Assembly: GCA_016927185.1 (NCBI GenBank)
Contig: JAFGND010000043.1
Location: 1-43,117, forward strand
From: Candidatus Coatesbacteria bacterium
GTDB lineage: Bacteria; JAFGND01
DNA length: 43,117 bases
Direction of reading: 5' to 3'
In this document: piece by piece, positions 1-20,728 of the stretch
Position numbering within the stretch: position 1 is the first letter of the stretch
Layout of the letters: each line of letters starts with the position of its first letter
The notes under the pieces: generated by a model
What the model was told of the DNA's origin: nothing
Database searches by the model: none
What the model saw: only the letters and a program-made list of their open reading frames with translations
Made by a program: the position numbers and the translations under genes

Positions 1-645
1 GTTCCTGCTAAAATTGTAGAGAAGAATTTCGCAAAATGGGCAAATATTTTAAGGGAAATACCTTTCCAATCTAAAAAAGAAGAAGCACTAATGAAGTTCA
101 AGGATGAAGTACTTTTAGAAGAAATAAAAAAACTTGAAAACAATTATGAGATATTATTCTCCAGTATTACTTATAACACTCTGCAGCAATATAAAATAAA
201 ATATATTCTAAGTAGATTAACACAATATATTGAAAGCATTTGGAATTCAAATGAATCAGAAAGTCATATTGAACAAATATTTTTAAATGAAACTATTGAA
301 CATATCTTACCTCAAAAACCTCAAAAGGAAGATGCTGATTTATTTGGTTCAATAGAGGAATGTGATAAATATAAGATAAAACTAGGTAATTTGGCAATCT
401 TGGATCGTAATACTCAGAGCATTATAAAGAATAAACTAATAAAAGAAAAAAGGGAAGCTTATAAGGAATATGCAAAATATCAGCTTACTAAATCAGCTTT
501 AGTAAGATTTGAACCAGTCGGAGTAGATAACTCTAAAATAAGATCATATCAGAAGTTGAAATATTTTGATAAATGGGATAAAGATGCCATAAACAATAGA
601 CAAAAAATGTTATTTGAACTATCTAAGGAAGTCTGGAAACTCTAA
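1..645 (+). CDS. C-terminal part of DUF262-DUF1524 (GmrSD-like) His-Me finger nuclease, 5' truncated by window edge
   Basis: Frame 1 is open from base 1; ETIEHILPQ...LGNLAIL...KN..KEKREAY and WDKDAINNRQ match the DUF1524 pattern. Confidence 0.8.
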   Translation, partial: VPAKIVEKNFAKWANILREIPFQSKKEEALMKFKDEVLLEEIKKLENNYEILFSSITYNTLQQYKIKYILSRLTQYIESIWNSNESESHIEQIFLNETIEHILPQKPQKEDADLFGSIEECDKYKIKLGNLAILDRNTQSIIKNKLIKEKREAYKEYAKYQLTKSALVRFEPVGVDNSKIRSYQKLKYFDKWDKDAINNRQKMLFELSKEVWKL

Positions 646-994
646 ATCTAATTTTAGATTCTCCTTCTCCATTCAAATCTTACCTACCCCATCTCCCACT
701 TCCCAATTCCTATATGTTTACAGAATATTATTGAAATAATATTTGAATATTTTAAAAGCTATCTTCTGTGAATTTCAGGAATCTTATAAACTATGCGGAA
801 ATCTTTCAGAAAAATTTTTTTTCTATCCTCATAAATTTTATAATATTTTTCGGCTTTCATAATCAAATGACTATCAAAGAAATACAGAAACCAAATTCTG
901 GAATTAAATTTATGTTAAATTTCTAGTTTTTGAAAAGATCTGTTACTTTAATAAAAAAAGCACTTTTTAAGAACTTAGAATATAGGGGGGATTA

Positions 995-3517
995 ATGGTA
1001 ATAAATAATGACCAGGAGGGATATAACGTAGAATCCGCCATTAAATGGCTGCATTATTTTTTTAGACAGGGAGAAGAATCCCTTGTTGATGAAACACATC
1101 TTCTTGAAATCGCTCTGCAAAGGCAAGAAAATGGGCTTGTAACTGTAAGAAGGAGTCCAAACTGGTGTTTCAGCTCCATGGGATCTGCGGAAGAATTCAT
1201 AAGAGGAATTTCAAGAAAGCACCAGGAAGTCGGTTTTTATTTCGGACCTGCTCTTAGATTTCAGAAACCTCCACAAGGAACTCATGCATCATCTGACAAT
1301 GATGTCTTGGAGACCAACCTAATTTACCTGGATGTCGATGCAAGGGACTTGGACATTGAAAACAGAATTGATTCTGACATTAAAAGCATCCTTGAAAGAC
1401 TTCCTTGTGAGCAGCATCCTCATTTGATGAATTTCACTGGGAATGGTTTTCATTGTTTCTGGGTTCTCAAGGATTTTGTGTCGATACATGAAGCAATGGA
1501 AGTTTCGAGAGCAATTGATCTGTATTTTCAGGATTTACTGGTTTCAATTGAATTGGATTCAATATATTATGTGGATAAATGCATCAGGAATCCCAGCAGA
1601 CTGATGCGCTTGCCAGAAACACTCAACCTCAAGCGGAAGCATGGATTTTTAAAAAAGGGAAGGATTCTCCTTAACAATCAACAAGTTGCATCCTACAGCA
1701 TTGATGATTTCCATCTTTTTGCTGAATATGGCAGAAAGAAGAAAAACAATCAACTTCTACATCCTGCGACAACTCCAGCCGAAAAAGAGCAAATTGGTTC
1801 TTCTAGTACTTTGGGCAAAGCAAACCCAGTCTCAGGAAAACTCACTAGACTCTTCAAGAAAGGTGTTCTTTTCACATTAGAAGAAATGCTCAGTTATCTT
1901 GCAGATCATGCGGATGAATTCAAGAGTTGCTATGAAATCAGCTTAACGGAAAATCAGATGGAATCTATTTGCAGAACCATCCGAAAAAATGCTGAAAGGG
2001 ATTTCAAGAGCATCAATTCAGTCTATCAGAGAAGAAATGCCTATTTAAATGGCAAATGGTATAACATCTCAGATTTCAGGCTGGAAATAATCGCTATTAT
2101 TGACGATCCTCATGAAACATTCAAGGATGTAAAATTCTATGTTGCAAATGTTTGGAAAGACAATCTCATTTTAAAAAGGTGGATTTCAATTTCTCCATCT
2201 GTAAGAGCTTCAAATGACAAGTTCAGGCAATTCATGCTGGAAACCGCTAATTGCAACTGGTCAGGAAGTAAACGAGATCTGGATGACCTTTTCTTTCATG
2301 AAGAAGCGAAAGCAGAAAGAAGTATTTTCAGGATAAGTGATATAGGCATTGCAGGTTATGTTGAAGGCATTGGCTGGGTTACAAAGCAGGGGATCTTGAA
2401 TAAAGGCAATCTAATTCACTGGGATGAAAACAATGTAGCTAATCTGGGGAATCGACAAGGAGTGCTGAAGCCAGAAAGGGAATCCTTTTTAAATCACTTT
2501 CTTGCGGATGTTAATCTAACCGGAAATAAGATAATACCTGTATCTTCTGACAATTTCTCTAATTCAACCTGTCTGGTGCTTGGCTACCTTTGTGCAGCAG
2601 TTAATTCACATCTTATTAAAGACAATGGCCTGTATCTTCCTGTACTTAACCTGTGGGGAGAGGAAGAGAATGCTTATTCTTTTCTGAAGAGTGTTTATGG
2701 CATGCTGGGACTTGATTTTGAAGGAATTACTGAAGCCGCACTTGGGATTAGAAGCACAGACGATCTCAAGAAACTGCTTTTTGGGGTAAACAACATTCCT
2801 GTTTATTTAGACAGCAGGATTTTTATTAAGAACACTCGCTTGAAATCATTCTATGAGAAAATTGTTAATCAAAAGGACTCTCCTCTATTCAGGACTAAGT
2901 CAATCATCTTTTACAACCATTGCTATCATGTAAAAAATGCAGGAAATACTTTATTGTTAAAAGTTCCCGCATCTGGAATTGAATGCCCAAATATGCTTAG
3001 GTGCTACATAGAATCTTATCCAGAAGCGATATCAATAAATGAAATAAGTGGCATTCTTCGTCGCCTTGATGTTAAATTGAATAATCCCAGAGCATTAGCG
3101 TTGTGGGGATTCTTTCATATGCTTCAAACTGGCATTCTAAAGGCATCTGGAACTAACTTTAACAGACTGGAAAGTATCAATAAAGAACTGTCTTCAACAG
3201 ATGAAAGCAAGGATCTTCTAGACAGTTTTCTTTCAGTTTTCGTTCGCCATGTTGAAAAACTCAAAAGAGAAGAGGGCTATTTATATAAGAATAAATACTA
3301 TATAAGACCGAAACATTGTTTTTCAAGGCTTTGTCAGGTTGCGGATGAATATGAGAGAGCAGTTCTGAAGAAGCTAAGTCCTGTTCAAATCAGCAAATTA
3401 CTGAAGTATTACTATGGGGAATTCGTTGAAAACACGCCCAGAAAGATATCAGGGAAGGATTCGGCAAGATACATCATCATAAATTTCGAGAACAAAAAGA
3501 ATCACCGAAATAGTTAA
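995..3517 (+). CDS. RepB-like (AEP superfamily) DNA primase fused to a degenerate DUF927/helicase-like C-terminal region
   Basis: Primase motifs YLDVD, TGNGFHCFW, RLMRLP; C-terminal PVLNLWGEEENAYS and VYLD sit where Walker A/B would be; G-rich SD upstream. Confidence 0.7.
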   Translation: MVINNDQEGYNVESAIKWLHYFFRQGEESLVDETHLLEIALQRQENGLVTVRRSPNWCFSSMGSAEEFIRGISRKHQEVGFYFGPALRFQKPPQGTHASSDNDVLETNLIYLDVDARDLDIENRIDSDIKSILERLPCEQHPHLMNFTGNGFHCFWVLKDFVSIHEAMEVSRAIDLYFQDLLVSIELDSIYYVDKCIRNPSRLMRLPETLNLKRKHGFLKKGRILLNNQQVASYSIDDFHLFAEYGRKKKNNQLLHPATTPAEKEQIGSSSTLGKANPVSGKLTRLFKKGVLFTLEEMLSYLADHADEFKSCYEISLTENQMESICRTIRKNAERDFKSINSVYQRRNAYLNGKWYNISDFRLEIIAIIDDPHETFKDVKFYVANVWKDNLILKRWISISPSVRASNDKFRQFMLETANCNWSGSKRDLDDLFFHEEAKAERSIFRISDIGIAGYVEGIGWVTKQGILNKGNLIHWDENNVANLGNRQGVLKPERESFLNHFLADVNLTGNKIIPVSSDNFSNSTCLVLGYLCAAVNSHLIKDNGLYLPVLNLWGEEENAYSFLKSVYGMLGLDFEGITEAALGIRSTDDLKKLLFGVNNIPVYLDSRIFIKNTRLKSFYEKIVNQKDSPLFRTKSIIFYNHCYHVKNAGNTLLLKVPASGIECPNMLRCYIESYPEAISINEISGILRRLDVKLNNPRALALWGFFHMLQTGILKASGTNFNRLESINKELSSTDESKDLLDSFLSVFVRHVEKLKREEGYLYKNKYYIRPKHCFSRLCQVADEYERAVLKKLSPVQISKLLKYYYGEFVENTPRKISGKDSARYIIINFENKKNHRNS

Positions 3518-3652
3518 GAAAGGAGGTTTTAATGGCATTTGATCAGATATATTTTGTTAAAAACATTAACCATAGGAGGTATTTGCTATGAATAGCAAAA
3601 CAAGTAATGAAGATGCTTTGTTTAATTCCAATCCTAAAGGGAAGGAGAAAAA

Positions 3653-4894
3653 ATGGATAATTACGATTTAACTGAATCTGGATTGCTTACTGCAAATTCA
3701 GAAACAAGTGAAAGCAAATCTTCAGAGAAGAGAGCGTTCGCTGACTTGATTTATATTGACAAGGATTTTGACAATCCACCTTTTAAAGTAAATGATAAAT
3801 ACAAAAATACTCAGCGTCCTCTCACAGAAAAAGAATACAATAATCTAAAAGATGGTATTGTGAAAAATGGTTGCCTGGAGCCACTTATAATTGATGAAAG
3901 AACAGAATATCTTGTTGATGGGTATCACAGGGAAAAGATTTGCAGAGAGAATAAAATACCCTATTCAGTGAAAAGGTTGGATTTCAAGGATGAGCAAGAG
4001 ATTCTGTTTTATGTTTTGACTCATCAGGAAGGAAGGCGTAACAATAATGGTATGGAGACTGATCTTAACATGGCAAGAATTTATAATAATTGTAAGATGG
4101 CACCAAATGGTTATAGAGATAAGGAAGAATGTACAGGAGATAATAGAGAATGGGTTGCGAAGCTCTTTAATAGAAGCAAAAGTAGTGTTACAAAATCTGT
4201 TAAGTTGCTAGAAAGTTATGAAATTATTGTGGATGTTTGCGGTAAAGAGATAGCAGATAAGATAACCAGAGGTGAGATATTGCTGAACAGAACGGAAATC
4301 AATGCAATTGCCAGATACAAGAAAGCAGACATTGAAGCCTGTATGAATGAATTGAAGGAAATTTATATCTCTCATAAAAGGAATGGCATCACTGAAATTA
4401 TTTTTAAATATGAAGAAAAATATAGTTCACAGAGAAAAGCTGAAAAACCAAAGAATGAAACTCCTACTGATGTAACATCTGATTCTGCAGTTAGAACTCA
4501 TAAGGCAGAAATTGTAGGAGAGAAGGACAATCTGAAAACTGCTTGTTCAGACAAATTTTCTGAAAGAGTCGATTCAGAAAAAAAGACAAATGAATGTTTT
4601 CATCATGACAAATCTAGCAAGGAAGGGGGAAAATCTAACAAAGCTTCAGATAAACAGAAATGTCACTCAGAAGATGAAGTGATAAGTGATTTGATTAATG
4701 AATCATCTAATCTTGAGATAAGACTAGATTCCTTTTTTCAGAAACTTAATGCTTCAGGATTTGCAGAGAGTTTTAGGGAGATTCAGCAATCTAATCCCAC
4801 TGACTGGATGACCGTTATCAGGAATTTCAGGAAAACACTCAAAATAGACAGCAATAAGAGCATTGAGCAAACTGGAGATGTTAGTAAATTCTAA
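3653..4894 (+). CDS. ParB/Srx-like N-terminal domain protein with HTH and charged low-complexity tail
   Basis: LEPLIID...LVDGYHR..IC and QEGRRN motifs; REWVAKLFNRSKSSV HTH-like; SD AAGGAG. Confidence 0.8.
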   Translation: MDNYDLTESGLLTANSETSESKSSEKRAFADLIYIDKDFDNPPFKVNDKYKNTQRPLTEKEYNNLKDGIVKNGCLEPLIIDERTEYLVDGYHREKICRENKIPYSVKRLDFKDEQEILFYVLTHQEGRRNNNGMETDLNMARIYNNCKMAPNGYRDKEECTGDNREWVAKLFNRSKSSVTKSVKLLESYEIIVDVCGKEIADKITRGEILLNRTEINAIARYKKADIEACMNELKEIYISHKRNGITEIIFKYEEKYSSQRKAEKPKNETPTDVTSDSAVRTHKAEIVGEKDNLKTACSDKFSERVDSEKKTNECFHHDKSSKEGGKSNKASDKQKCHSEDEVISDLINESSNLEIRLDSFFQKLNASGFAESFREIQQSNPTDWMTVIRNFRKTLKIDSNKSIEQTGDVSKF

Positions 4895-4904
4895 ATTGAA
4901 AGAG

Positions 4905-4933
4905 ATGCAGGATAGGATTTTCTTATCCTGCAT
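4905..4933 (+). terminator. Hairpin after parB-like gene, probable terminator
   Basis: ATGCAGGATAGGA-TTT-TCTTATCCTGCAT, 13-bp stem with one G-U, followed by TATTTGT. Confidence 0.55.
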
Positions 4934-6422
4934 TATTTGTCGGATTGAAAGATCTGCTTCAATTCTTGATCTTCTCGTTAGTAAAATTATCAACGGGAAG
5001 ATGCTCATACAATAAGAAATGATAAAAAATGGAATAATAGTACCTATTTTAGCCATTCTTTATTGAATCCTTTTATTTATAAATGATTTACAGGATTATT
5101 CCCCATCTTTTTGTAACAATGTAGTTTTTTTAAGTGCCTTATGACTTGCTTTTGGACAGAGTTTATGAAGGAATTGTGGTCTTTTTTAATCCTTGTCTAA
5201 AATGCCTCCTATTAGCAAATAAGTAAAGAAGAAGAAAGAATCTAGTTCTAGACTAGCACTAGAAGAAACTAAGTTCATTTTAGAAAATAATAATGATCAT
5301 TGAAAAAATAATGTAAAAAGAACCAACATTGGATTCTAGTGAAATTAATGATCCTAGATAATTACTAGGTAAGGGTAAGGAGATGGACCTGAAATATGTA
5401 TGTGTTGGTTGGTGCGAAGTCTCCGAGTACATCCCTTTAAATTTCGACGATTTACTTCTGGACAGTACAATTCCTCCAGGAAGCATTTTGCTCTTAAATT
5501 TGAGGCTTTCTGGGGTTAATTTAGGCAGGGAGTGATGCATGGGTTGATGGGTTAATGATTAGGGGGGGATTGGTGGGTGGGTCAATGTGTTGGTTGGTAT
5601 GGATTTATGTTGTGGTGGGGAGGTAGGTTGGTTTGTGTGATATGGTTTTTCAGAGATTTTCTTGGATCATGATTTTCTTCTAAGATTATCCATTTCTCTA
5701 AAAGGATCTTTGGACAGGTGTTTTTTGAAAATCATCATTAATCTTCAATTCACATGTCCAGTCTTCCGTTCTATATTTTCTTTAATTATCAGGGAACTAT
5801 TTCAAGCCATTAATCTTAGATAGGTATCAGCAATAATAAATCCAACTAAATCCTTCTGTTAAAATGTTCAGGATTATCTTTTGTACAGGAATCATCTCAT
5901 TATCATTACCATTTAAGGTAGTTAACATAATACCTTTACTTTATTCACTTTATTCCATTACCCATACTTATTAACTCTTACTAGATTCTTTTTCCTTTCC
6001 TTTCCTGGTCCTAGTTTATCTTTAGTCCTAGTTTTCTTTGGAGGTGATTAAAAGCCATCTAAAAGTTTAATAAGATCCAATTGCATTAATCCTGCTATCA
6101 TTCTTTTTCCTTTCTATCTCTTTTTTCTTTCTTTTCTCTTTCAAAGCTATTATGTTATATCTAGCTTATTTTATTTTCCTTTATGCTGGTTTTGTTGCAG
6201 GATATTTTAGCTAAACCTTTTAGTCTGTTTTACATTCTGGCTATTGTTTTTCTGATAATGCTAATCTTCCAGTCCCGCTTTTGTTAACATTTGAAAGCTA
6301 GTTTTTCATTAACATCTGGTTCTGGGATGATTTAGAGATGATTATTTATTTTATGTAGTTTTTTTATTTTTTCATTTCTATGTTATTTTATATATGATTC
6401 TAATTTATGGGAGGAGGTGAAG

Positions 6423-6881
6423 ATGGATTTGATTCCAGAAAATTCTTTTAGTGAAGAGGATTATTCTTTTTCGCACAGTGAGAAAATTATTAAAGGTCAG
6501 ATGAAAAGAATAAGTGACGGTTTACCAGCATCCAGAGCTTTCCTAGGTTACAAAAACGTCATTAAAGAAGGGAGGAAAGTCGTTGAGATTGATAAAGATA
6601 GCTCTGAATTTATAGTGACGGTGTTTAGGCTTTATAGTTCGGGTAGCTATTCATTGCGGAAACTAGCTCTGAAACTAAGATCAATGAAGCTGGGTGAAAA
6701 GGGTAAAAGATTCAAAACTAATCCGGTATCTCTGCAGAAGATCATTACCAATTCAGCTTACTGTGGACTTTTGAAAGATTGTAATGGTAGGATATTTAAA
6801 GCAAGTTTTGATGCAATTGTTGATTTAGAAACATTTGAGAAGGCTAATAAATTGTTGATTCGGGAAATCTCTAAAGAATGA
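6423..6881 (+). CDS. Stand-alone serine-recombinase DNA-binding (Recombinase) domain protein, no catalytic domain
   Basis: GYKN...VFRLYSSGSYS...IITNSAYCG...AIVDLETFEK aligns by eye with the middle of ORF 19120; ATG 6423 has SD GGAGG. Confidence 0.8.
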   Translation: MDLIPENSFSEEDYSFSHSEKIIKGQMKRISDGLPASRAFLGYKNVIKEGRKVVEIDKDSSEFIVTVFRLYSSGSYSLRKLALKLRSMKLGEKGKRFKTNPVSLQKIITNSAYCGLLKDCNGRIFKASFDAIVDLETFEKANKLLIREISKE

Positions 6882-7041
6882 TCCGGCAGAGATTGGTTCA
6901 TGGATTTGTTGAAAAATGTAGTGATTATGAGGGTAGAGAGATTGGGTGGGTTTAGTGGAAAGGAGGCTGATGCGTGTAATCAGTCTCCTAGAAAAAATAA
7001 GAGCTTAAAATGAAAAAAATTAAATATATAAGGAGGTAAAA

Positions 7042-7572
7042 ATGGAAGAATTAATGTTTAAACACGTTCTGAAGAATCCTGTCACTGGTGAAGAGGAGCA
7101 GATTTTAATAATAAATCCCCAGTCTTTTGCAATTCCTGTTTACAGGCTTCAAATGAACGCATTTGATTTGATTTTTTTGCTGGAAAGGAATCCTCGGCTT
7201 GCTTGTTTCTTCATTGAATACTACAAAAAAGTTATGAATTTAAAGTCTGCTGATGTGAGAACCTTAGAGGAGAATTTTGTTGAGGCTGCATTCATTTTTG
7301 AAAGTTTTTTGGAAGAACATAAAGAAATTGTAAAAGCTTCAAGAAAGTATAAACAGTTTAGAGAATTTTTTTACAATATCTTCGATTGCATTAACGATTT
7401 AATTCTTAATCTAGAAACAGCTCAGATGTTCAAAGACAATTTCAGTCTGTGGGTAAAAATGCAAGGTAAAAACCTTGATGACATTGAATCTGATTTAGAT
7501 TGGGCTAAGCTTTTTTTAGAGTTTTACAATTTGTGTGAAATAAAATACTTTCTGCCCATGTTCTATATCTAG
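7042..7572 (+). CDS. Hypothetical protein, probably helical
   Basis: 176-aa ORF, strong SD AAGGAGGT, hairpin downstream; no motif recognised. Confidence 0.7.
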   Translation: MEELMFKHVLKNPVTGEEEQILIINPQSFAIPVYRLQMNAFDLIFLLERNPRLACFFIEYYKKVMNLKSADVRTLEENFVEAAFIFESFLEEHKEIVKASRKYKQFREFFYNIFDCINDLILNLETAQMFKDNFSLWVKMQGKNLDDIESDLDWAKLFLEFYNLCEIKYFLPMFYI

Positions 7573-7587
7573 CATTAAAAAATCATA

Positions 7588-7613
7588 AAGGCAGGTTGAA
7601 ACATACCTGCCTT
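7588..7613 (+). terminator. Hairpin after ORF 7042, possible terminator
   Basis: AAGGCAGGT-TGAAACAT-ACCTGCCTT perfect 9-bp stem; no clear U-tract. Confidence 0.45.
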
Positions 7614-8650
7614 AATGAATGCATTGAAACATTGATGCATGTGAATCTTTGCTAACACCCCCTGTCCATGTTTTGGGTGATGTATGTCGCGAAAAATGTG
7701 AGTGGGAATATTCTGCGGGAAATGGATTCAGGGAATAATGGGTCATCGTACTAAATTCTGTGTTGGGTGAATCATTGGTGGATGTTGCATGTGAGATTAT
7801 TTATAAGACCATCTCTTCTTAATCTTCTGAAATTTAATGTGTGGATCTCAGAGGATTAGTGTAGATGAAAGCGGAGATCAACCCAAAAGCTCAGAAAATG
7901 GATTTAGGAAATAATGAATCGCGCAGAGAATGTGTCTTTAAAACAAACCCCTCTAAACCCCACAGATTAGAAGAGTTTTGGGAAACAGGGGAAAATATAT
8001 TAGGATTGGAGAAACAATGCTGAGGAATTGACAATAGAGGCTTTTTTGAGGGAAGCAAGATTAAGAGAGGAAACTTGATGTATGGATTAAAGTAAGAATG
8101 GGAATAAAAGTTAGCTGAAAGGATGGAAGGGAAAAAAGATGGATGGTTTCTGGAAAGAATCTGGGTGATGGGAAGACTAATGTGGTAGTTGATATGATTT
8201 CTTCTCATTTTCCAAAACAGTGCAGGGGGAAGAATAGTAAATTAGTGTTTTGGTGGATAGAATGATGTATGATGTAGATTTAAAGCGGGTCTATGAAATA
8301 ATGGGTAGAAATGAAATGCTTTGGTTATTCCTACATATTGGCTAAAGATTTATTGGTAGATGCTTAGAGAATCTGCCTTGTTGGAGATGATTAATGATTA
8401 CTGTGACTATGACAAATACGGTATCCACAAATAAAGCGGCTAGGGATGGGGGCAGAGAATTAGTGTGGTAGAGAAAATATTGATAAGGAGAGAGTTGGAG
8501 GGAGATGATTATAGATTTAGGGAAAATTCTTGACAAGATAAGTGGAAAATAATTAAACACCAGTAATCTTAATATGATAATATCCAAAAGACATTTTACT
8601 AAAATTGGGAGAATTTTTAAAAGTGGATAACTTAAGTAAAGGAGCATAGA

Positions 8651-10042
8651 ATGCGCATTTTGATAATGATTTTGGTGGGGTTTTCTCTAGTCTATGGAGA
8701 GCATTTCTGGACAAACTGGAGAGGGAATAACAGACAGGATGGATTATCTCCATGTATAGGACCAAGGGAACCTTATTTTATAAATAGTATTTCATTAAAA
8801 CCAGCTTGTGATAAATCAAATAATATGAAAAACGATTTTAAAAGACCAACCATATATCCTCCCCACGTCGCAGCAGTAATATCAGAAGATAGTACTTTAT
8901 ATGTTCGTTACTGTGATGATGGGAATTCTTATCTTCTATCAATAAAGAATGACCAGCTTCAATGGAGAGAGCAGTTTGGAGATCGTGAAGAGCAGAATAT
9001 CTGTATAGATGACGAAGGCATACTATATTTTCCATATGAGGATTATTACCTTGTAGCATATAATGCAAAGCAAAGATATATAATCTGGCAAAAAGGAGAA
9101 ACAAATAGAGGATCAGCTGTCTCAACCTTTGTAGATAAAGGTATAGTCTATCTTATAACTATAGATGAATATGTTTTAGCATACAACAGTAAAAGCGGAG
9201 AATTATTATGGAAAGAGGTGTTAAAATATCCCGTTTATATATCTGCTTATGGAGATAATGGAAGCTTATATTATGAAAGTTCAAATTGTCTGGTTGAATT
9301 TCGTTCAAATAAGACATACAGAACATTACCTGCAGTACATTCATCATTGCCCTCAATAGCAAAAGATGGGACATTATATAGTGTTTTTGATAAGAAGCTA
9401 TATGCAATAACACCAGATATGAATATAAAATGGTCATCAGCAGCAATGGAAGATACAACAGAAGATTTCAATCCTTGTGCAATAGATAATGCAGGTAATA
9501 TTATTTGCTCTTCTTATCAGTTAGGTAATATATATAAATTTGCTTCTAACGGCAGTTTTCTTTGGAAAGTAACAGTAGAAAATTATCCAAATTTGGTAAC
9601 AATAGATGATGAAGATAAGATTTTTTTTGGTAATTTTTTAAATTTATATTGCCTTAAACCTGACGGTTCAAAGATGTATAGTATTAATACAGATGATCTT
9701 ACCTTCTATGCAATTCCAGGACCTGCAAGAAGGTTATATATCTTCTGTTATAATGATGATAATAACAATGACTATGTATTAATTTATGGTGGAAAAGAAG
9801 GATTTAAAGAAAGAAAAGAAACAGCGAAACAAATACCAGCAAAGATTGATATATATCCCAATCCCTTCAAAGACAAGCTAACAGTAAACAGTACTTCAGA
9901 AGGAGCTATCTATAACATAGTTGGGCAATCCATACAATCATTCAATAAAGGCAAGCAAGTCCTTGATACCCAAAGCTGGGAGCAGGGAGTTTATATAATA
10001 AAATCTGGAAGTTCAACAAAGAGAATTATTAAAATCAGGTAG
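8651..10042 (+). CDS. Secreted PQQ-type beta-propeller protein with T9SS type A-like C-terminal sorting domain
   Basis: Signal peptide; G..LW blade motifs; YPNPF...IYNIVGQ...GVYIIK...KRIIKIR tail. Confidence 0.85.
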   Translation: MRILIMILVGFSLVYGEHFWTNWRGNNRQDGLSPCIGPREPYFINSISLKPACDKSNNMKNDFKRPTIYPPHVAAVISEDSTLYVRYCDDGNSYLLSIKNDQLQWREQFGDREEQNICIDDEGILYFPYEDYYLVAYNAKQRYIIWQKGETNRGSAVSTFVDKGIVYLITIDEYVLAYNSKSGELLWKEVLKYPVYISAYGDNGSLYYESSNCLVEFRSNKTYRTLPAVHSSLPSIAKDGTLYSVFDKKLYAITPDMNIKWSSAAMEDTTEDFNPCAIDNAGNIICSSYQLGNIYKFASNGSFLWKVTVENYPNLVTIDDEDKIFFGNFLNLYCLKPDGSKMYSINTDDLTFYAIPGPARRLYIFCYNDDNNNDYVLIYGGKEGFKERKETAKQIPAKIDIYPNPFKDKLTVNSTSEGAIYNIVGQSIQSFNKGKQVLDTQSWEQGVYIIKSGSSTKRIIKIR

Positions 10043-10050
10043 GGGGAGTT

Positions 10051-12939
10051 ATGAAAAAGGAATACTTAATAATTGGAGTAATTATTCTATTATCCTTTAT
10101 TTCTTTATATGCAGATCTTGTAACTATTGGAACTCAACCTTTTTTTCATTTTGTTAACTGGGACGATTTATCCTACAGACAAAATTTTAATAATACAAGA
10201 GCTTATCTTTATAATAATCTAGGTATAAGATGGGCAAGAATTCAAATTTCCTGGAAATATGCTTATTTCTATCCTCAGTATATGTACAAAAGAGACCAAC
10301 AAGGTCTTTGGGGAAATGTTGATCATGGAATAAGATTAATGATGCATACAACATTAGCTCCTTTTGCTAGAAAAGTTAGTACTTCAGGAGGTATTATAAT
10401 AAGCCTTGTCCCTGGAGCTCCATATCCGCCAATGAAAAATAAGGGTGATTGGTATCAATGGGATAACGAGAATAATAAGGATTTCGCTTTTTATAAAAAC
10501 CTAGGAGGTCAAGGAGTTGGACTTTTATTAGCTGATATAATGCATAGAAAAGAAAGAATATGGGCTAATACTTCTTATCCAGATTATAAAAAAATAAGAG
10601 AAAAAGAAACAGATCCGTTTTTTGAACCTCATTGGCTTCCAGCAGAAGGAGCATTAAGTATGGGTTCCTCAGGGAATCCAGACGTTCCAGATGAATATAC
10701 ATGGGAGTACTTTTGCATGAAATTCGCAGAGATAGCAGCTGAGAGTCTTGAGATTCATGGAACAAAAGTTCACTTTGAGATAATGAACGAACCATTTAAT
10801 AATGTATGGTTTTGTAGAGGTAAGGATGATGGTAGCACAGAGAATAAGAGATTAACAGCGGATGAAAGCTATGTTGAAAAAGTCTTATATTATGGAACAA
10901 GAGGGATTAAAAGAAAATGGTGTACAGGTCCAGGTGAATTAGATTATAAAGCAATTCCTCTCAACAAATATATCATTTTTTGCTGTTTAAATCCAATGGA
11001 ACCACCAAATTATACTTGGGCGTCGAGTCAATCTCAGGATAAAAAAGATGCAGGGAATGGATGGAATAGTGCAGTTTTAGATAAACTATGGACACAATAT
11101 ACTAGGGGATCAACAAAAGAACCTGCAAACATATATTGTAATGCATTTTCATTTCATCCATATCATTTCGCAGATCCGTATGAAAAGTGGTCATGGCCAT
11201 CTGATAAAACCACTTTTCTTGAAAAAATAGAAAGAATAAATAATGTATTAGATCAAGAAGCAATAAGTAGTAGTATTCCTCTTTTTATTACTGAATATGG
11301 CTACCATGGTGTAGTAAGAGCAGATGTGATGGATCAATTTGGTTCTAAAAAAGAACTAGGCTATTGGTTATCAGCGTACTCAGAAGGAAGTTATGAAAAC
11401 AAGATGTTTCATTATACAGGAGATCCTTCTAAGGGTGGTTGGACTGAATTTGTTCAGGTAGAGCAAGATAAATTTAACTTCAATCAAAAATGGAGTAACA
11501 ATAAAAATGCATTTGCATGGGAAAGCAATTTCAGGAATAATGATGGTACTGGTGTAACATATCATACAGATAAATATTTTTCTTTCAGGCAAGAACAAGA
11601 TAATTTTGATGGAGGTGGAGCAGACTTTGAAAGTTATTCCTTGCCTAGAGGCTGGTTTGGAGATGCTTTATGGATTCAATGTAATTATGTAAAACCTATA
11701 ATGTTTTCTGATCCTTTTGAAAATGAGATAAGATGTGCCAGATTTTTTACTAATGCTATAAATATAGTAATTGAATGGAATAGAACCCATTATAGACAAA
11801 TAAGAGGTTTTTTTACCTGGCAAAACGCTGGTTCTTGTCACTATAATGCTTGGAAAGACGATCATTGGGCATATTGTGGACATTTTCATTCTGGAGATCT
11901 TTATAGCGATGATACAAAATTCAACGGAACAAGTAGCATAGAGGTGGATTATAAAATAGGTCCTGCAAAATTAGAAGCTTTTGCTTTAGCAGCATTTAAA
12001 CAAATTATTTTAGATGAATATTGGAATCCTACTTTTGCTAAATATAACTCTAAGATAAAGAATTCAACTAAAGTTAAAATCAGTGACTTAAACAATAATC
12101 TTAAATCAAATGAAATAAAGAGTAAAACAACAAATGTAGGAGGAACGGTAGAAGAATGGGGAGTTTGGAGAAGCGGTAGATATAACTATACTAGCAATCA
12201 AGTAGCATGTATAATTTTACCTATAACTCATTTAAGTGAATGGAGTAGTATAACAATAAATAGATATAAGACAAAAATTGTTGAAAGTGAACAGAATTCA
12301 TATTTTGATACTTCTTCAAAATGGGATAATCTTCTAAAATATATTCCCTATGATTGTCCTCATAATGTTTCTGTTTTTTTTGGTTATCCAAATGTTTATC
12401 CCGATTTTCCAGTTCCTGATGATAGATGGTATTACATTGGAGATCTTGTGAATGGAGATCTTGGAGAAGAGCATAAATTTTATCCGGATGACTTCCATAT
12501 AGATGATTATGATTATAGATGCATATGGTTGGTAGAAAACACAAATAACTGGAAGTATCCAGGTGTTTCAGATCCCTATCCAGATGATTTTATTTGGGGC
12601 AATTTTTGTATTAAATGGGAGCAAACCTTACAAACAAATAAAACAGCGAAAAGAGTCCCAATACAACCTAAAATTGAAATTTCACCTAACCCATTTTCAA
12701 GTTCTTTAAAGATTTCTTATAGAGTAACTGGTAATGGAAAACCAAATGTCCAGATAGTTCTATATGATCTAACAGGAAAAAGAATCAAGGAATTAGTAAA
12801 TGAGAAGAAGAAACAAGGGATGTATAGATTTAATAAAGATCTTAGTTATTTAAATAATGGGGTCTATTTCTGTAGATATGTGCTAGATGGAAAAGTTATA
12901 TCAGTTCAAAAACTTCTGCATTTAACCAAATCCAAGTAG
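10051..12939 (+). CDS. Secreted clan GH-A glycoside hydrolase-like protein (GH5/GH39-like) with T9SS/FlgD-like C-terminal domain
   Basis: Signal peptide; LGIRWARI, EIMNEP (acid/base), SFHPY, FITEYGY (nucleophile); SPNPF...LYDLTGK...GVYFCR tail. Confidence 0.75.
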   Translation: MKKEYLIIGVIILLSFISLYADLVTIGTQPFFHFVNWDDLSYRQNFNNTRAYLYNNLGIRWARIQISWKYAYFYPQYMYKRDQQGLWGNVDHGIRLMMHTTLAPFARKVSTSGGIIISLVPGAPYPPMKNKGDWYQWDNENNKDFAFYKNLGGQGVGLLLADIMHRKERIWANTSYPDYKKIREKETDPFFEPHWLPAEGALSMGSSGNPDVPDEYTWEYFCMKFAEIAAESLEIHGTKVHFEIMNEPFNNVWFCRGKDDGSTENKRLTADESYVEKVLYYGTRGIKRKWCTGPGELDYKAIPLNKYIIFCCLNPMEPPNYTWASSQSQDKKDAGNGWNSAVLDKLWTQYTRGSTKEPANIYCNAFSFHPYHFADPYEKWSWPSDKTTFLEKIERINNVLDQEAISSSIPLFITEYGYHGVVRADVMDQFGSKKELGYWLSAYSEGSYENKMFHYTGDPSKGGWTEFVQVEQDKFNFNQKWSNNKNAFAWESNFRNNDGTGVTYHTDKYFSFRQEQDNFDGGGADFESYSLPRGWFGDALWIQCNYVKPIMFSDPFENEIRCARFFTNAINIVIEWNRTHYRQIRGFFTWQNAGSCHYNAWKDDHWAYCGHFHSGDLYSDDTKFNGTSSIEVDYKIGPAKLEAFALAAFKQIILDEYWNPTFAKYNSKIKNSTKVKISDLNNNLKSNEIKSKTTNVGGTVEEWGVWRSGRYNYTSNQVACIILPITHLSEWSSITINRYKTKIVESEQNSYFDTSSKWDNLLKYIPYDCPHNVSVFFGYPNVYPDFPVPDDRWYYIGDLVNGDLGEEHKFYPDDFHIDDYDYRCIWLVENTNNWKYPGVSDPYPDDFIWGNFCIKWEQTLQTNKTAKRVPIQPKIEISPNPFSSSLKISYRVTGNGKPNVQIVLYDLTGKRIKELVNEKKKQGMYRFNKDLSYLNNGVYFCRYVLDGKVISVQKLLHLTKSK

Positions 12940-12950
12940 AGGAGATAAAA

Positions 12951-14057
12951 ATGAAAAAAACAATAACTATAATGATATGCTTTTCAATAGCTTCTTTGTT
13001 TATGACTCTTTCTTGTATGGATGAAAACGAAATTCCTGAATATAATTCTGGAATAGGAGATCAGACAGGTTATCCGGCACCCGTTTGGGAGGTATATTTG
13101 GGGAGTTACAGTGAACCATGTAATGTTTGGTGTGTTGATGTGAATAATGAATACTTTCTTGCTTCTGGAAATAATGCTGTAAGACATTGGTTTATTGGCT
13201 TTTATCCCCAACTTAAACGTACAACTGGTGGTTTAAGCGGTGATGTCCTTTCTGCAGCATTTGTATATCCTAATCAACAATATCCAATTTTAGTTGGTCA
13301 AGAAGATGGATATCTTCTTAGATTTAGATGGATACCGATAATGGGTGGAGAGAAACGTGATACATTGAATATTAAGAAAACTGGCGAAATACCAATTCAT
13401 GCGATAGACGTTAGTAATAGTGATCCTCAAAAGTGCCTAATAGCTAGGTATGATACTGTTGAGTATTGGCAGACAGTATTGCCAAAGGAATTTGAAAAAT
13501 TGAAGACTTATACAATAGAACAAGGAGTAGAAAGCAATACATACATCTGGTCTATAGATTTTTGCTCTGGTGATCAATATTTTATAACAGGAGGTTTTGA
13601 TAAAAATGTTTATAAATGGAACATTTCTGTACAGTATTCTCTTTTTCATTTCGAGGATCATTCTTTAGAAGGACTCCATCCCCCAAGTCACAAAGATAGA
13701 GTTCGAAGTGTAAAAGTAGCATCAAATAGCAGCTTTGTTCTTTCAGGAGGAAATGATGGAAAACTGAAAAAGTGGGATTTAAACGGAAATCTAATATGTA
13801 CTTTTAATGGACATAGTGATAGACCTTATGGATTTATTTCTTCTATAACTATAACAGATGACAATTGTACAGCTGTAACAGGTGGTGATGACGGAGAAAT
13901 AAGAGTTTGGGATGTTCAGAATAATAATGCATTTGCAATAGCCGGTTTTCATGTTGGTGGAGTACATTCTGTAGCCATTTTAAAAGGAGCTAGTGGCACT
14001 AATTATATATTGTCATCTGGTGCAGATGGGAAAGTAAAATGCTGGAATATACCTTAA
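12951..14057 (+). CDS. WD40-repeat lipoprotein
   Basis: Lipobox LSC; repeated SGG.DG..K.WD / GH motifs. Confidence 0.85.
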   Translation: MKKTITIMICFSIASLFMTLSCMDENEIPEYNSGIGDQTGYPAPVWEVYLGSYSEPCNVWCVDVNNEYFLASGNNAVRHWFIGFYPQLKRTTGGLSGDVLSAAFVYPNQQYPILVGQEDGYLLRFRWIPIMGGEKRDTLNIKKTGEIPIHAIDVSNSDPQKCLIARYDTVEYWQTVLPKEFEKLKTYTIEQGVESNTYIWSIDFCSGDQYFITGGFDKNVYKWNISVQYSLFHFEDHSLEGLHPPSHKDRVRSVKVASNSSFVLSGGNDGKLKKWDLNGNLICTFNGHSDRPYGFISSITITDDNCTAVTGGDDGEIRVWDVQNNNAFAIAGFHVGGVHSVAILKGASGTNYILSSGADGKVKCWNIP

Positions 14058-14071
14058 TAAGGAGAAAGATA

Positions 14072-15394
14072 ATGAGAATTATATTATTTATCATATTCCT
14101 CTTTTCCTTTTCAACCTTGCACGGTGCAGGAGAACTGATCTGGAAATCGGAGAGGATACTGAAAAAGGAAAATAATGGATACAGAATCCAGACTTCTCCT
14201 GTAATAGGTTATAATGGATCAGAAAAGCTTCTTTTTGTTTTCTCTAATACTACAGAAGGATATGGAGATACAGGATTATTATGCTTTGATCCGTTAACAG
14301 GAGATCTTAAATGGCTATATAATCTTTATCCTAACATAGATGCTAATCCAGTTTATGATGATGGAATTATATATGCTCCAGGACGTGATTTTTTTTACGC
14401 AATATATTCCAGTAATCATACTTTGAAATGGGAGTATGATTCTCCATATGAATCTTATACTCCTTTAATTCACAGTAATAGCATATTTGCAAGTCTTTCA
14501 CTTTTAGTATCTCTGAATAAAGAATCTGGTGGAAAAAACTGGCAGTCTATAGTTGATTCTTACTATCAACCTTTATTTCTTGAGAATTTTCTATTTGTTG
14601 TTGATTATTATCATTGGCTTACTGCAGTAAATGCAGCAAATGGAGACACATTATGGTGGGGATATTCTAAATTAGTCAGAACAGAGCTTGCACCGATCTT
14701 GTGGAATAATTATATCTATATCAGTGAAGCTAGTAATTATAACGGTTGTTCAAAAATAAATCCAAAAGATGGAAAGAGGATATGGAATTATCATGTAGAT
14801 AATATCAGAACTTCACCATATATTTTGAATGAGAAGATTTATTTTGGAGATGTAGACGGCTATTTATATTGCCTTGATGCCAATGATGGCTCTTTCAAGT
14901 GGAAGGCAGCGGTAGGAGATACTGTAGCATCTACAATAACATCTGCATATGATCCAGTAACCCAAAAGGATGTTCTTTATTTTGGAAGCAATCTTGATTA
15001 TCTTCATGCAAGAGATGCAGCAGATGGCAAGCATTTATGGGTTTACAAGACAGGAGGAAATATACGTTCAACTCCTTGCGTATCAGACAGTATAATTTAT
15101 TTCACAAGTGATGACGGTTATCTCTATGCAGTGAATATTGGTTTCAAGGATGGCTTCAATAAAAAGCAATCCTCCCATCACCTTCCATCCCCCTCCCTTT
15201 CCTCATATCCCAATCCATTCAGGGACAGACTGATTATAGAAACATCTGACAAGGCAAGGATATACTCTATCACCGGGCAATTTATCATGAAAGTAGAGAA
15301 AGGCAAGCACTCTATTGATACTAGCAGCTGGAAACAGGGAGTATATATAGTGAAGAGCGGTACAGAAACCAAGCGCATTGTAAAAATCAACTAG
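14072..15394 (+). CDS. Secreted PQQ-type beta-propeller protein with T9SS type A-like C-terminal domain
   Basis: ATG 14072 after SD AAGGAG gives a signal peptide; IYFG..DGYLY.LDA.DG..KW repeats; YPNPF tail. Confidence 0.88.
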   Translation: MRIILFIIFLFSFSTLHGAGELIWKSERILKKENNGYRIQTSPVIGYNGSEKLLFVFSNTTEGYGDTGLLCFDPLTGDLKWLYNLYPNIDANPVYDDGIIYAPGRDFFYAIYSSNHTLKWEYDSPYESYTPLIHSNSIFASLSLLVSLNKESGGKNWQSIVDSYYQPLFLENFLFVVDYYHWLTAVNAANGDTLWWGYSKLVRTELAPILWNNYIYISEASNYNGCSKINPKDGKRIWNYHVDNIRTSPYILNEKIYFGDVDGYLYCLDANDGSFKWKAAVGDTVASTITSAYDPVTQKDVLYFGSNLDYLHARDAADGKHLWVYKTGGNIRSTPCVSDSIIYFTSDDGYLYAVNIGFKDGFNKKQSSHHLPSPSLSSYPNPFRDRLIIETSDKARIYSITGQFIMKVEKGKHSIDTSSWKQGVYIVKSGTETKRIVKIN

Positions 15395-19119: not shown

Positions 19120-20685
19120 ATGGATTCGAATGATTTATTGAGATCAGCAGTTATTTATTGTCGAGTTAGTTCCTCTCGTCAGGAGAAAGAAGGCTATTCA
19201 ATTCCTGCCCAGGAGAAGTTGCTCATAGAATATGCTCTAAAGAATAATATAAAAGTTGTTAAAACATTCAAGGAAGCAGAATCAGCAAAAGAATCAGGCA
19301 GAAAGTGCTTCAATGAGATGGTTAGGTTTTTGAAAGAAGAGAAGGAAAAGAAAAGTGACGACAGGTGCAGAAGCATATTGGTTGAGAAAGAAGACAGACT
19401 GACAAGGAATTTTAAGGACATTGTTACTTTGGATGATCTTGACCTGGATCTTTATTTTGTTAAAGAGAATATTTGTATTAGTAAGAACTCATCATCACAG
19501 CAGAAATTAATTCATGGTTTCAAGGTATTATTAGCAAAGAACTATTCTGACAATCTGAGAGAAGAAACTCAGAAGGGAATGTTGGAAAAAGCAAGACAAG
19601 GATATTATCCCTCTGCCGCTCCTATCGGCTATAAAAATGTAACGATTGACGGAAAAAAGGAAATTATAGTTGATGAGAAAAATAGAAGCTTTATTGAGAG
19701 ATTATTTGAACTTTATGCTACAGGTGAATATTCTATTACTGTAATCAGAGAAAAACTAGTAAGAGAAGGACAAGGAATAACTAAAAAAAGCAATAAAGTA
19801 GTAAGAAGCAGGATACATGCCACTCTAAGAAACCCATTTTATTATGGAGATTTCATGTGGAAGGGGATTTATTATGAGGGGAAACATGAACCGATTATCT
19901 CAAGAGAATTATTTAATAAGGTTCAGGAGGTTCTATCAGGTAAAGGAAGACCTAGAAAGCGAGTTCATGACTTCACTTTTAAGGGACTTCTTAGATGCGG
20001 ACATTGTGGTTGCAGATTAGTTGGTTATCTTGCTAAAGGCAAATATATTTATTATCATTGCAACCGGAGCAAAGCTATATGTAATGAAAAATATGTCAGT
20101 GAGCAAGAAATGGACAAACAATTCATGGAAGATCTGAAGTATTTTAAAATGAGTAATGAAACAATAGAACATTTAAGAAACGCCCTTAATGAAAGCCACC
20201 AAGAAGAAAAACTCTATTTTGAATCTTGTATGAATAACCTTGATCAAGAAATAAAGAATCTTAGAAAAAAACTTTCCATAGCATATGAAGATAGAGTGAA
20301 TGGGATAATAACTGCTGAAGAATATGTACAGATGAGTAACGCATGGAAGATGAGATTATCTGAAGTTTCCGAAGAAATTGATAGACATGACAAAGCTAAT
20401 ATTGGTTATTATGAAGATGGGGAAAGAATACTAGAACTCGCTCAAAACGCTGTATTAATCTATTTTAAGATGAATTCTGAAGAAAAAAGAAAACTCTTGA
20501 ATCTGGTTTACTCGAACTGCTTCTGGAAAGACGGAAAAATGATTCCTCAATATCGCCAACCTTTTGATATACTTATAGATATGAATAAGAAAAAAAATCA
20601 AATGAAAGGTCAAAAAAGGCTAAAAATTGATAAAATCGATAGGAGTTACCCCTGGCGGGATTTGAACCTGCGACCGACGGATTAG
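19120..20685 (+). CDS. Large serine recombinase (integrase)
   Basis: YCRVSS catalytic Ser, DRLTR, recombinase domain, CGHCG...YYHC...C zinc ribbon, coiled coil; SD AGGAGG. Confidence 0.95.
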   Translation: MDSNDLLRSAVIYCRVSSSRQEKEGYSIPAQEKLLIEYALKNNIKVVKTFKEAESAKESGRKCFNEMVRFLKEEKEKKSDDRCRSILVEKEDRLTRNFKDIVTLDDLDLDLYFVKENICISKNSSSQQKLIHGFKVLLAKNYSDNLREETQKGMLEKARQGYYPSAAPIGYKNVTIDGKKEIIVDEKNRSFIERLFELYATGEYSITVIREKLVREGQGITKKSNKVVRSRIHATLRNPFYYGDFMWKGIYYEGKHEPIISRELFNKVQEVLSGKGRPRKRVHDFTFKGLLRCGHCGCRLVGYLAKGKYIYYHCNRSKAICNEKYVSEQEMDKQFMEDLKYFKMSNETIEHLRNALNESHQEEKLYFESCMNNLDQEIKNLRKKLSIAYEDRVNGIITAEEYVQMSNAWKMRLSEVSEEIDRHDKANIGYYEDGERILELAQNAVLIYFKMNSEEKRKLLNLVYSNCFWKDGKMIPQYRQPFDILIDMNKKKNQMKGQKRLKIDKIDRSYPWRDLNLRPTD

Positions 20686-20721
20686 GAATCCGGCGCTCTA
20701 TCCATACTGAGCTACAGGGGC
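20647..20721 (-). tRNA. tRNA-Arg (anticodon CCT), CCA not encoded
   Basis: Reverse complement folds as a cloverleaf: GCCCCTG/CAGGGGT acceptor, GCTC/GAGC D-stem, TTCCTAA loop, TTCAAAT T-loop. Confidence 0.93.
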
Positions 20722-20728
20722 AAAAAAA

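Follow-up and report, generated by a model that had tools for sequence, protein, structure and literature searches.

Large serine recombinases (LSRs), among them those of A118 (LI integrase, structure 4kis), SPbeta, Bxb1 and PhiC31, are the closest described relatives of the protein presented here, ORF 6423. They comprise a catalytic domain bearing the serine nucleophile (PF00239), a recombinase domain (RD, or DBD1; PF07508) and a zinc-ribbon domain (DBD2; PF13408) with a coiled coil. Subunit interfaces of serine recombinases are formed by the catalytic domain together with the N-terminal portion of helix E. According to passages of PMC3783163 on the LI integrase–attP complex, the end of helix E and the linker from helix E to strand β6 follow the minor groove, and helix H lies in the major groove; the RD spans ~13 bp, only 3 of which are directly contacted in the major groove, and is connected to the zinc-ribbon domain by an 8-residue linker. 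A serine integrase is switched to attL x attR recombination by a recombination directionality factor (RDF), and the characterised RDFs covered in excerpts of PMC11795197 bind to the junction of DBD2 and the coiled coil without having a common fold. The serine-recombinase passages in excerpts of a review of recruited mobile-element genes deal only with active invertases, resolvases and excisive enzymes (PMC8987985). A full-text literature search, at the level of listings and abstracts, returned no description of RD proteins devoid of the catalytic domain. The databases already annotate RD-only ORFs, and the kind is therefore visible there but uncharacterised. For transposases, Tn5 Inh, IS1 InsA and the OrfA proteins of the IS3 family are DNA-binding-only derivatives that damp or regulate their own elements.

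ORF 6423 is located in a window of 43,117 nt, i.e. the whole stretch of DNA that was analysed, which is an entire contig of the 2.99-Mb, 109-contig, 93%-complete genome of a Candidatus Coatesbacteria bacterium. Up to position 20685, every gene of the contig is encoded on the + strand (Table 1), and housekeeping genes lie beyond the LSR and the tRNA-Arg gene. The region reads as a genomic island that sits at this tRNA gene and bears marks of both accretion and decay; a direct repeat of the tRNA-Arg end that would mark the left island border is not found within the contig.

Table 1. Features of the island around ORF 6423, in genomic order.
Feature	Position	Strand	Remarks
GmrSD-like nuclease, C-terminal part	upstream of ORF 6423	+	
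840-aa protein without family	upstream of ORF 6423	+	
ParB-like protein, 413 aa	upstream of left flank	+	
Left non-coding flank, 1.5 kb	4895..6416		no credible ORF
Shine-Dalgarno GGAGGAGG	6410..6417	+	GGAGG at 6413-6417, 5 nt ahead of ATG 6423
ORF 6423, 152 aa, pI 9.47	6423..6881	+	helix-E tail and RD/DBD1, stand-alone
Helix, C-terminal part of helix E	6453..6515	+	residues 11-31; AF2 secondary structure; HMM match from residue 12
E-to-beta linker (conserved GY) and complete mixed alpha/beta RD	6516..6878	+	residues 32-152; Pfam, AF2, LSR HMM, Foldseek
Spacer, 160 nt	6882..7041	+	one 11-bp hairpin at ~6961-6989, no U-tract; fold z-score -1.05
ORF 7042, 176 aa, acidic (pI 4.9), orphan, fold unassigned	7042..7572	+	codon-usage score 0.156
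Right non-coding flank, 1.1 kb	7573..8650		no credible ORF
9-bp G+C-rich hairpin	7588..7613		16 nt past ORF 7042 stop; T-run on minus strand only
Four secreted beta-propeller proteins, three of four with Por_Secre_tail sorting domains	downstream of ORF 6423 region	+	
Weakly Rep-like protein, then ADP-ribosylglycohydrolase	between beta-propeller genes and tyrosine recombinase	+	
Tyrosine recombinase, 189 aa, truncated	before LSR, same island	+	catalytic domain alone
LSR, 521 aa, PF00239, PF07508 and PF13408	19120..20685	+	sole complete large serine recombinase of the genome
tRNA-Arg(CCT)	20645-20722	-	overlapped by the 3' end of the LSR gene

ORF 6423 runs from the ATG to a TGA stop at 6879-6881, and the alternative start GTG 6417 would lengthen it to 154 aa. 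The GGAGG motif occurs at 3895 sites of the genome (5.98 Mb over both strands, hence a density of ~6.5e-4 per position), 529 of which sit 3-11 nt ahead of a start opening at least 100 codons; the most frequent spacing before ORFs of at least 100 aa is 4-5 nt. Since the 5 nt found ahead of ORF 6423 is modal for the genome, the motif counts as a translation signal, the chance of a GGAGG at the right spacing for one given start being estimated at ~0.4%. Codon usage was scored in frame as log-odds trained on 1113 long ORFs of the genome: ORF 6423 reaches 0.112, the 9th percentile of long genes, yet clearly positive. For the minus-strand ORFs of the flanks the values are negative (-0.08 to -0.15), and these ORFs are judged spurious. 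ORF 6423 is probably a translated small gene, with its own Shine-Dalgarno sequence and a clean start and stop, as had been put forward in the original prediction made from the sequence alone.

Pfam analysis of ORF 6423 returns PF07508 (Recombinase) alone (39.4 bits against a cut-off of 21.1, E 7.5e-10), and in PHROGs it belongs to the integrase family phrog_95, matching profile positions 216-355 of 651. BLASTP aligns its residues 15-147 with residues 141-272 of the LSR of the window (29% identity, E 2e-13), and the motifs quoted earlier to link the ORF to the RD of that enzyme are all present. An LSR profile HMM built from 77 sequences matches residues 12-148 at profile positions 138-272, nearly without gaps and with 130.7 bits; this score is the 13th lowest among 73 held-out RDs, i.e. 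low-normal. The AF2 model, computed from a 59-row alignment, has a pLDDT of 91.3 and displays a helix (residues 11-31), a β-hairpin and a complete RD fold. To note, integrity is only weakly tested by a high AF2 confidence when the model is computed from aligned homologs. Foldseek retrieves with this model, at E <= 0.001, LSR structures only (4kis, 6dnw, Bxb1, SPbeta, PhiC31), with TMq values of 0.58-0.70, and of 0.67 against 4kis. Pfam, the LSR profile and the 4kis fold agree on an RD/DBD1 (PF07508). The protein covers the last third of helix E followed by the RD: it begins 11 residues ahead of the helix-E match (AF2, LSR HMM) and stops ~5-7 residues past the last aligned RD position. The near-gapless match, the pLDDT and the basic pI, which resembles that of the RD of the resident LSR, argue for a domain without visible decay. 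ORF 6423 is therefore similar to LSRs in the end of helix E and in RD/DBD1, in both sequence and fold; it differs from them in lacking the catalytic domain, the serine nucleophile and the zinc-ribbon/coiled-coil part, and is thus no recombinase.

The relatives of ORF 6423 are remote. An exhaustive phmmer search of 1.84 billion cluster representatives yields 557 proteins at E <= 1e-3, only ORF 6423 itself falling below 1e-30; the best 150 of these 557 share 25-39% identity with it and are mostly ~500-aa LSRs matched at about residues 135-275. The ORF is highly diverged, almost all matches being full-length LSRs; close homologs of conserved length, envisaged at the outset, are missing above ~39% identity among these representatives. 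A word-index search of 5.8 billion clusters recovers at near length ORF 6423 itself only, and nothing longer. Scans of viral, genome and metagenome contigs reveal no close relative, two metagenome loci being found at 28% and 37% identity, and no genome of the comparison set is nearer kin than the same domain. In trees of RDs, the terminal branch of ORF 6423 measures 1.14 (91st percentile) and no sister is supported; these trees show that it is not a recent copy of the resident LSR. The ORF is a singleton. Of the 30 ESM Atlas clusters closest to ORF 6423, 22 carry PF07508 only, a figure that fragments may inflate; the representatives of the three best clusters are 137-177 aa long, with 95-181 members.

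Among the 150 best phmmer matches, 20 are no longer than 260 aa, ORF 6423 included, and they are of two kinds. Those of the first kind begin at an internal Met that is conserved in helix E (‘MAKNY...’) or are otherwise truncated, extend ~19-107 residues further past the RD, have full-length relatives at 45-76% identity, and score 145-188 bits on the LSR profile, like ordinary LSRs. None of the 18 short matches that were looked up shares its 90% cluster with more than one other sequence; several short matches lie on contigs below 1.5 kb, one is named ‘partial’ and another clusters with a 544-aa protein. The first kind plainly consists of fragments of ordinary LSRs. The second kind is a clade of five metagenomic proteins of 145-231 aa (P0043, P0096, P0124, P0144 and P0045, hereafter the P0043 clade), which are mutual best matches at 34-47% identity (SH-aLRT 82). 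In all of them the C-terminus follows the RD by no more than a few residues, and their RD scores are low-normal, like that of ORF 6423. P0144 (145 aa, RD only; locus L049) is encoded on a contig of 88.6 kb, where a complete LSR of 532 aa, to the RD of which it is 33% identical, lies 1.3 kb upstream of it.

A profile of the short proteins, run over 401 diverse genomes, places four short open frames on top, ORF 6423 and one each in genomes G036, G338 and G197; below them the score drops from 144 bits to the 125 bits of the first LSRs. The last three are orthologs, 80-86% identical over 138 codons with unconserved upstream sequence, and at all three loci the LSR profile matches, within 1.5 kb on either side, the RD alone. 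In the order to which G036 belongs, whose members are assigned by the sources to Candidatus Hydrogenedentota, the stand-alone RD gene is present as a single copy in 75 of 81 genomes; among the 64 genomes of high quality 62 have it, and among the 44 genera 42. The open frames measure 158-271 codons, with one exception of 377, and the gene callers report 161-174 aa; the products are annotated as ‘recombinase family protein’, ‘site-specific DNA recombinase’ or ‘hypothetical protein’. A GntR-type gene is found ~500 nt upstream on the same strand at 10 of 14 loci; of the remaining four, two are truncated by a contig end. For eight orthologs (28 pairs, of which 16 have a computable dS), dN/dS is 0.03 at the median and 0.118 at most, the least saturated pair having dN 0.006 and dS 0.67. 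This family is a core gene under strong purifying selection. A maintained stand-alone RD, as originally predicted, is thus real elsewhere, but ORF 6423 itself remains a singleton.

Does ORF 6423 belong to one of these groups? An alignment gives ORF 6423, the Hydrogenedentota family and the P0043 clade common boundaries, with an end just after the RD. The Hydrogenedentota proteins share with ORF 6423 the architecture, the C-terminal boundary and PF07508 as sole domain. At 27% identity, however, they are no closer to it than the RDs of ordinary LSRs, and they derive from a single-copy core gene near a GntR gene, whereas ORF 6423 is an island singleton without GntR synteny, its upstream 1.5 kb being free of ORFs and followed by the ParB-like gene. 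The P0043 clade has the same architecture too, at 27-31% identity to ORF 6423, and each of its members stands alone in its 90% cluster. Subtracting the LSR-profile score from the short-profile score gives -41.5 bits for ORF 6423, as compared to -48 +/- 18 for 30 held-out LSRs, 12 of which score as high or higher; the Hydrogenedentota proteins, when left out as a group, behave alike (about -40). This profile test reveals no specific kinship of ORF 6423 with either group. A quick free tree places it beside the P0043 clade with support of 74, and in an AU test the tree uniting both is not rejected (p-AU 0.856), its lnL being 28.5 above that of the free quick search; the grouping was named after tree inspection and involves long branches. 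The RD-only architecture is accordingly treated as having at least two or three separate origins, and ORF 6423 as a singleton of it.

Several of these results speak for ORF 6423 being an intact, catalytically dead, stand-alone DNA-binding protein, a reading to which a probability of about one half is assigned: the modal GGAGG spacing, the ends at domain boundaries, the basic, near-gapless and confidently modelled domain, the positive codon score, the lack of relics of other domains (see below), and the existence elsewhere of a functional protein of this architecture. The architecture, the translation signal, a compatible fold and the lack of the other domains are established, as is the maintenance of this architecture by selection in another lineage; expression, DNA binding, target and role are inferred. 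As the domain with the Ser nucleophile is missing, the protein is unable to cut or join DNA; the lack of the zinc-ribbon/coiled-coil part precludes the synapsis of sites and steering by a directionality factor. What it retains is the DNA-contacting unit, made up of the helix-E end, the linker in the minor groove and the entire RD/DBD1, its stop falling in what would be the RD-to-zinc-ribbon linker of LI integrase. It may bind an RD-type motif (~13 bp in LI integrase–attP) as a simple site-specific DNA-binding protein, the most economical role being a sequence-specific or sequence-preferring binding without catalysis, and within its own island it could act by repression or by competing for att-like or promoter DNA. 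The logic would be that of Tn5 Inh, IS1 InsA and IS3 OrfA, in that a binding part could occupy the sites of the enzyme; those proteins belong to other families and are made from the gene of the enzyme, whereas ORF 6423 is a separate, highly diverged gene. Because the RD of LI integrase directly contacts just 3 bp, according to the passages cited above (PMC3783163), the affinity and specificity of a short RD alone may be low. At somewhat under even odds, ORF 6423 would be a working member of an undescribed, repeatedly arisen class of LSR-derived site-specific DNA-binding regulators with a ‘helix-E tail + DBD1’ architecture. That a class of stand-alone RD proteins is real follows from the Hydrogenedentota core gene; another lineage has a copy 1.3 kb from a full integrase.

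The most serious competitor, held to be rather less probable than not, is a relic: two deletions or rearrangements of an older integrase at the tRNA-Arg site would have left a functionless protein, its frame being open only since the event is recent, with a Shine-Dalgarno sequence and a start that are fortuitous or captured from the 5' end of another gene. Against an intact gene, and consistent with such a relic, stand the singleton status without close relatives, the long branch and low-normal profile score, the codon score at the 9th percentile, the abundance of short RD-bearing LSR fragments among the best matches, and the occurrence of a second truncated recombinase, of the Tyr type, in the same island. 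The surroundings point in the same direction, since ORF 6423 lies between non-coding flanks of odd composition in the gene-poorest internal stretch: no other internal segment of the genome extends as far as 5057-6416 with no ORF of at least 100 aa, and the longer gaps all reach contig ends. The missing kinship with either conserved short group also counts against an intact gene.

The remains that an integrase should have left are, however, missing. Tblastn of the resident LSR against 4800-8700 gives no catalytic or zinc-ribbon match, other matches having E values of ~1 or worse, and the LSR HMM, run with filters off (--max) on the six frames of this segment, matches at 6456-6878 only. With Pfam models, PF00239 with its serine nucleophile is absent from ORF 6423 and found nowhere in the genome but in gene 19120; PF13408/DBD2 is likewise absent from ORF 6423, has its only convincing match of the genome in gene 19120, with weak ones elsewhere on other contigs, and reading through the TGA shows no Cys motif. 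The same HMM does detect such pieces where they exist: in L062, a frameshifted LSR of genome G223 taken as a positive control, a short RD-bearing frame with an internal stop lies alongside catalytic pieces in two other frames. The absence of both domains from ORF 6423, a claim of the original prediction, is thus verified, without decayed remains in the flanks. A frameshifted integrase gene is ruled out, as no catalytic or zinc-ribbon sequence is found in 4800-8700 or, gene 19120 and the weak PF13408 matches apart, in the genome, and so is a split integrase with its catalytic domain elsewhere, as PF00239 occurs in gene 19120 only. ORF 6423 resembles LSR pseudogenes such as L062 and the ‘MAKNY...’ proteins as a short RD-bearing ORF starting within helix E, but these have close full-length relatives (45-76% identity), run past the RD and leave other domains in neighbouring frames, none of which applies to ORF 6423. 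Uniform neutral decay cannot erase the neighbouring domains and yet leave a gapless 130-bit domain; it is excluded as the origin of ORF 6423, and a relic therefore requires two precise deletions. These would also have had to leave a GGAGG at a spacing expected at ~0.4% by chance, and both ends of the ORF at domain boundaries, as in the selected Hydrogenedentota family.

A very unlikely explanation is that ORF 6423 is an RDF or another protein partner of the resident integrase (19120-20685), acting through protein–protein contact. It shares the island and the strand with this sole LSR of the genome, and L049 offers a precedent for an RD-only ORF close to a full LSR. Nevertheless, 12.2 kb separate the two genes, their RDs are only 29% identical, and ORF 6423 lacks the subunit interfaces, i.e. 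the N-terminal helix E and the catalytic domain. No RDF is described as RD-derived in the excerpts of PMC11795197, and the Hydrogenedentota family adjoins a GntR-type gene rather than an integrase. The directionality-factor role that had been suggested for ORF 6423 has no support.

The flanks had been described as structured non-coding DNA. That they are non-coding holds: they contain no credible ORF, and reading TGA, TAG or TAA as sense, one stop at a time, leaves them closed, so that stop-codon recoding was dropped as an explanation. Sliding codon-score scans of the flanks are driven by composition and uninformative. The left flank comprises a G-rich, C-poor block at ~5530-5640 and a pyrimidine-rich block at 5650-6400, with 5 C in the 150 nt of 5500-5650; at 8101-8700 the |GC skew| of 0.53 is the highest of the 9811 windows of 600 nt of the genome. 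The ‘structured’ part of the description is not sustained, with fold z-scores of four long flank segments of -1.9, -1.1, -2.3 and 0.0, and those of the spacer and of the 5' region (-0.89) not significant. At the gathering threshold Rfam finds tRNA only, besides a single sub-threshold match at chance level (E 0.49). Clear structures of the flanks are limited to two hairpins, a terminator-like one at ~4906-4932, 3' of the ParB-like gene, and the one 3' of ORF 7042. Searches for repeats of the flanks in the genome yield none, bar the start of a β-propeller gene; motif arrays are lacking in the flanks, a single 10-mer being present three times, and the phage and plasmid collections contain no match to them. 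An RNA-associated protein, or a module with structured ncRNAs in the flanks, is for these reasons extremely improbable, since nothing but the unusual size and composition of the flanks speaks for it, folding is not significant, Rfam families and repeated motif arrays are wanting, the flanks are neither repeated in the genome nor present in phage or plasmid collections, and the RD is a DNA-binding fold. The remaining probability goes to something not considered.

ORF 7042, which had been coupled with ORF 6423 into a candidate module, has the same layout, with GGAGG at 7032-7036, 5 nt ahead of its ATG. It is probably a real gene and possibly co-transcribed with ORF 6423. It belongs to no Pfam, PHROG, PADLOC or NCBIfam family and homology searches found no homologs, a weak match in genome G021 being a chance one inside an unrelated 516-aa protein; the pLDDT of its Atlas model is 0.57. 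A decayed coiled-coil/zinc-ribbon part was considered for this ORF and rejected, as it does not match the LSR HMM at 277-515 and its best tblastn E value is 3. A module formed by the two ORFs has no support.

It is routine to write off short ‘recombinase family protein’ ORFs as debris of integrases, and ORF 6423 does not look like debris. The order-wide Hydrogenedentota family is a more notable by-product than ORF 6423 itself: this comparison set shows that DBD1 of serine integrases is able to persist alone, encoded by a conserved gene of the cell. Should proteins of this kind bind to att-like or promoter DNA, they would represent a new type of recombinase-derived regulator or inhibitor. Were this true, genome engineering, which makes use of serine integrases, would have a practical interest in them as natural modulators acting in trans on these enzymes.

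A stand-alone gene for the helix-E tail and recombinase domain (RD) of a large serine recombinase, the architecture of ORF 6423, is conserved across an order whose members the sources name Candidatus Hydrogenedentota. It is single-copy, occurs in 75 of 81 genomes (G036, G338, G197 and G422 among them; loci L020-L022 and L050-L061) and usually has a GntR-type gene ~500 nt upstream of it. With a median dN/dS of 0.03, this order-wide gene looks like a domesticated, uncharacterised piece of a serine integrase. At locus L049, P0144, an RD-only protein of 145 amino acids, is encoded 1.3 kb 3' of a complete 532-residue serine integrase, the two being separated by a 148-residue ORF without family. P0144 and the RD of this adjoining integrase share 33% identity.

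Features of the island and of the comparison locus L049 (positions in the window unless a locus is named)
Feature	Position	Remarks
Non-coding flanks of ORF 6423	4895-6416 and 7573-8650	longest ORF-free stretch away from contig ends; GC-skew extreme of the genome
Four beta-propeller genes in a row (PQQ/WD40-like)	8651-15394	inside the island
Tyrosine recombinase ORF, 189 aa	18033-18602	catalytic domain only (PF00589 positions 8-170)
Serine integrase and tRNA-Arg(CCT), overlapping	19120-20722	opposite strands; final 41 nt of the integrase ORF shared
RD-only ORF P0144 and full serine integrase	L049:1069-4438	same strand; Abditibacterium MAG

The flanks of ORF 6423 are of unusual composition. The left one carries a G-run, C-poor block at ~5530-5640 (5 C in 150 nt) followed by a pyrimidine-rich block at 5650-6400; the highest |GC skew| of the genome, 0.53, is reached at 8101-8700. 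Searches of both flanks for homology, repeats, RNA families and a fold signal returned nothing that accounts for this composition. Three + strand copies of the 10-mer GAGATGATTA lie in the flanks (6335, 8384 and 8502), at marginal significance, one of them 88 nt 5' of the ATG at 6423. Between 16 and 17% of the 31-mers sampled from 5900-7700 are present in the biogas-fermenter metagenome runs X2 and X3, which could reflect a ~95% identical strain or merely a short common part.

The contig begins within the C-terminal domain of a GmrSD/HEC-06-like nuclease, followed by an 840-residue protein without family and a 413-residue ParB-like protein; this left side of the island (1-4894) may be a defence-type cluster. 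Three of the four beta-propeller genes encode Por_Secre_tail sorting domains, and six other contigs carry sequences 86-94% identical to the 5'-most 65 nt of the first, a shared signal-peptide region. Directly upstream of the serine integrase, the tyrosine recombinase ORF starts 26 nt past the preceding gene and looks like a truncated integrase. Since the 3' end of the serine integrase ORF overlaps tRNA-Arg(CCT), the integrase C-terminus is read across the tRNA gene; the rest of the contig holds no repeat of the tRNA end.

Against BFVD, the predicted RD structure of ORF 6423 gave a weak fold match (E 0.019, TMt 0.46, 75 columns) to P10429 of Bacillus phage phi105, the 133-residue "immunity region protein 5". 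This model-based match provides a lead: small RD-like proteins may be located in phage immunity regions.
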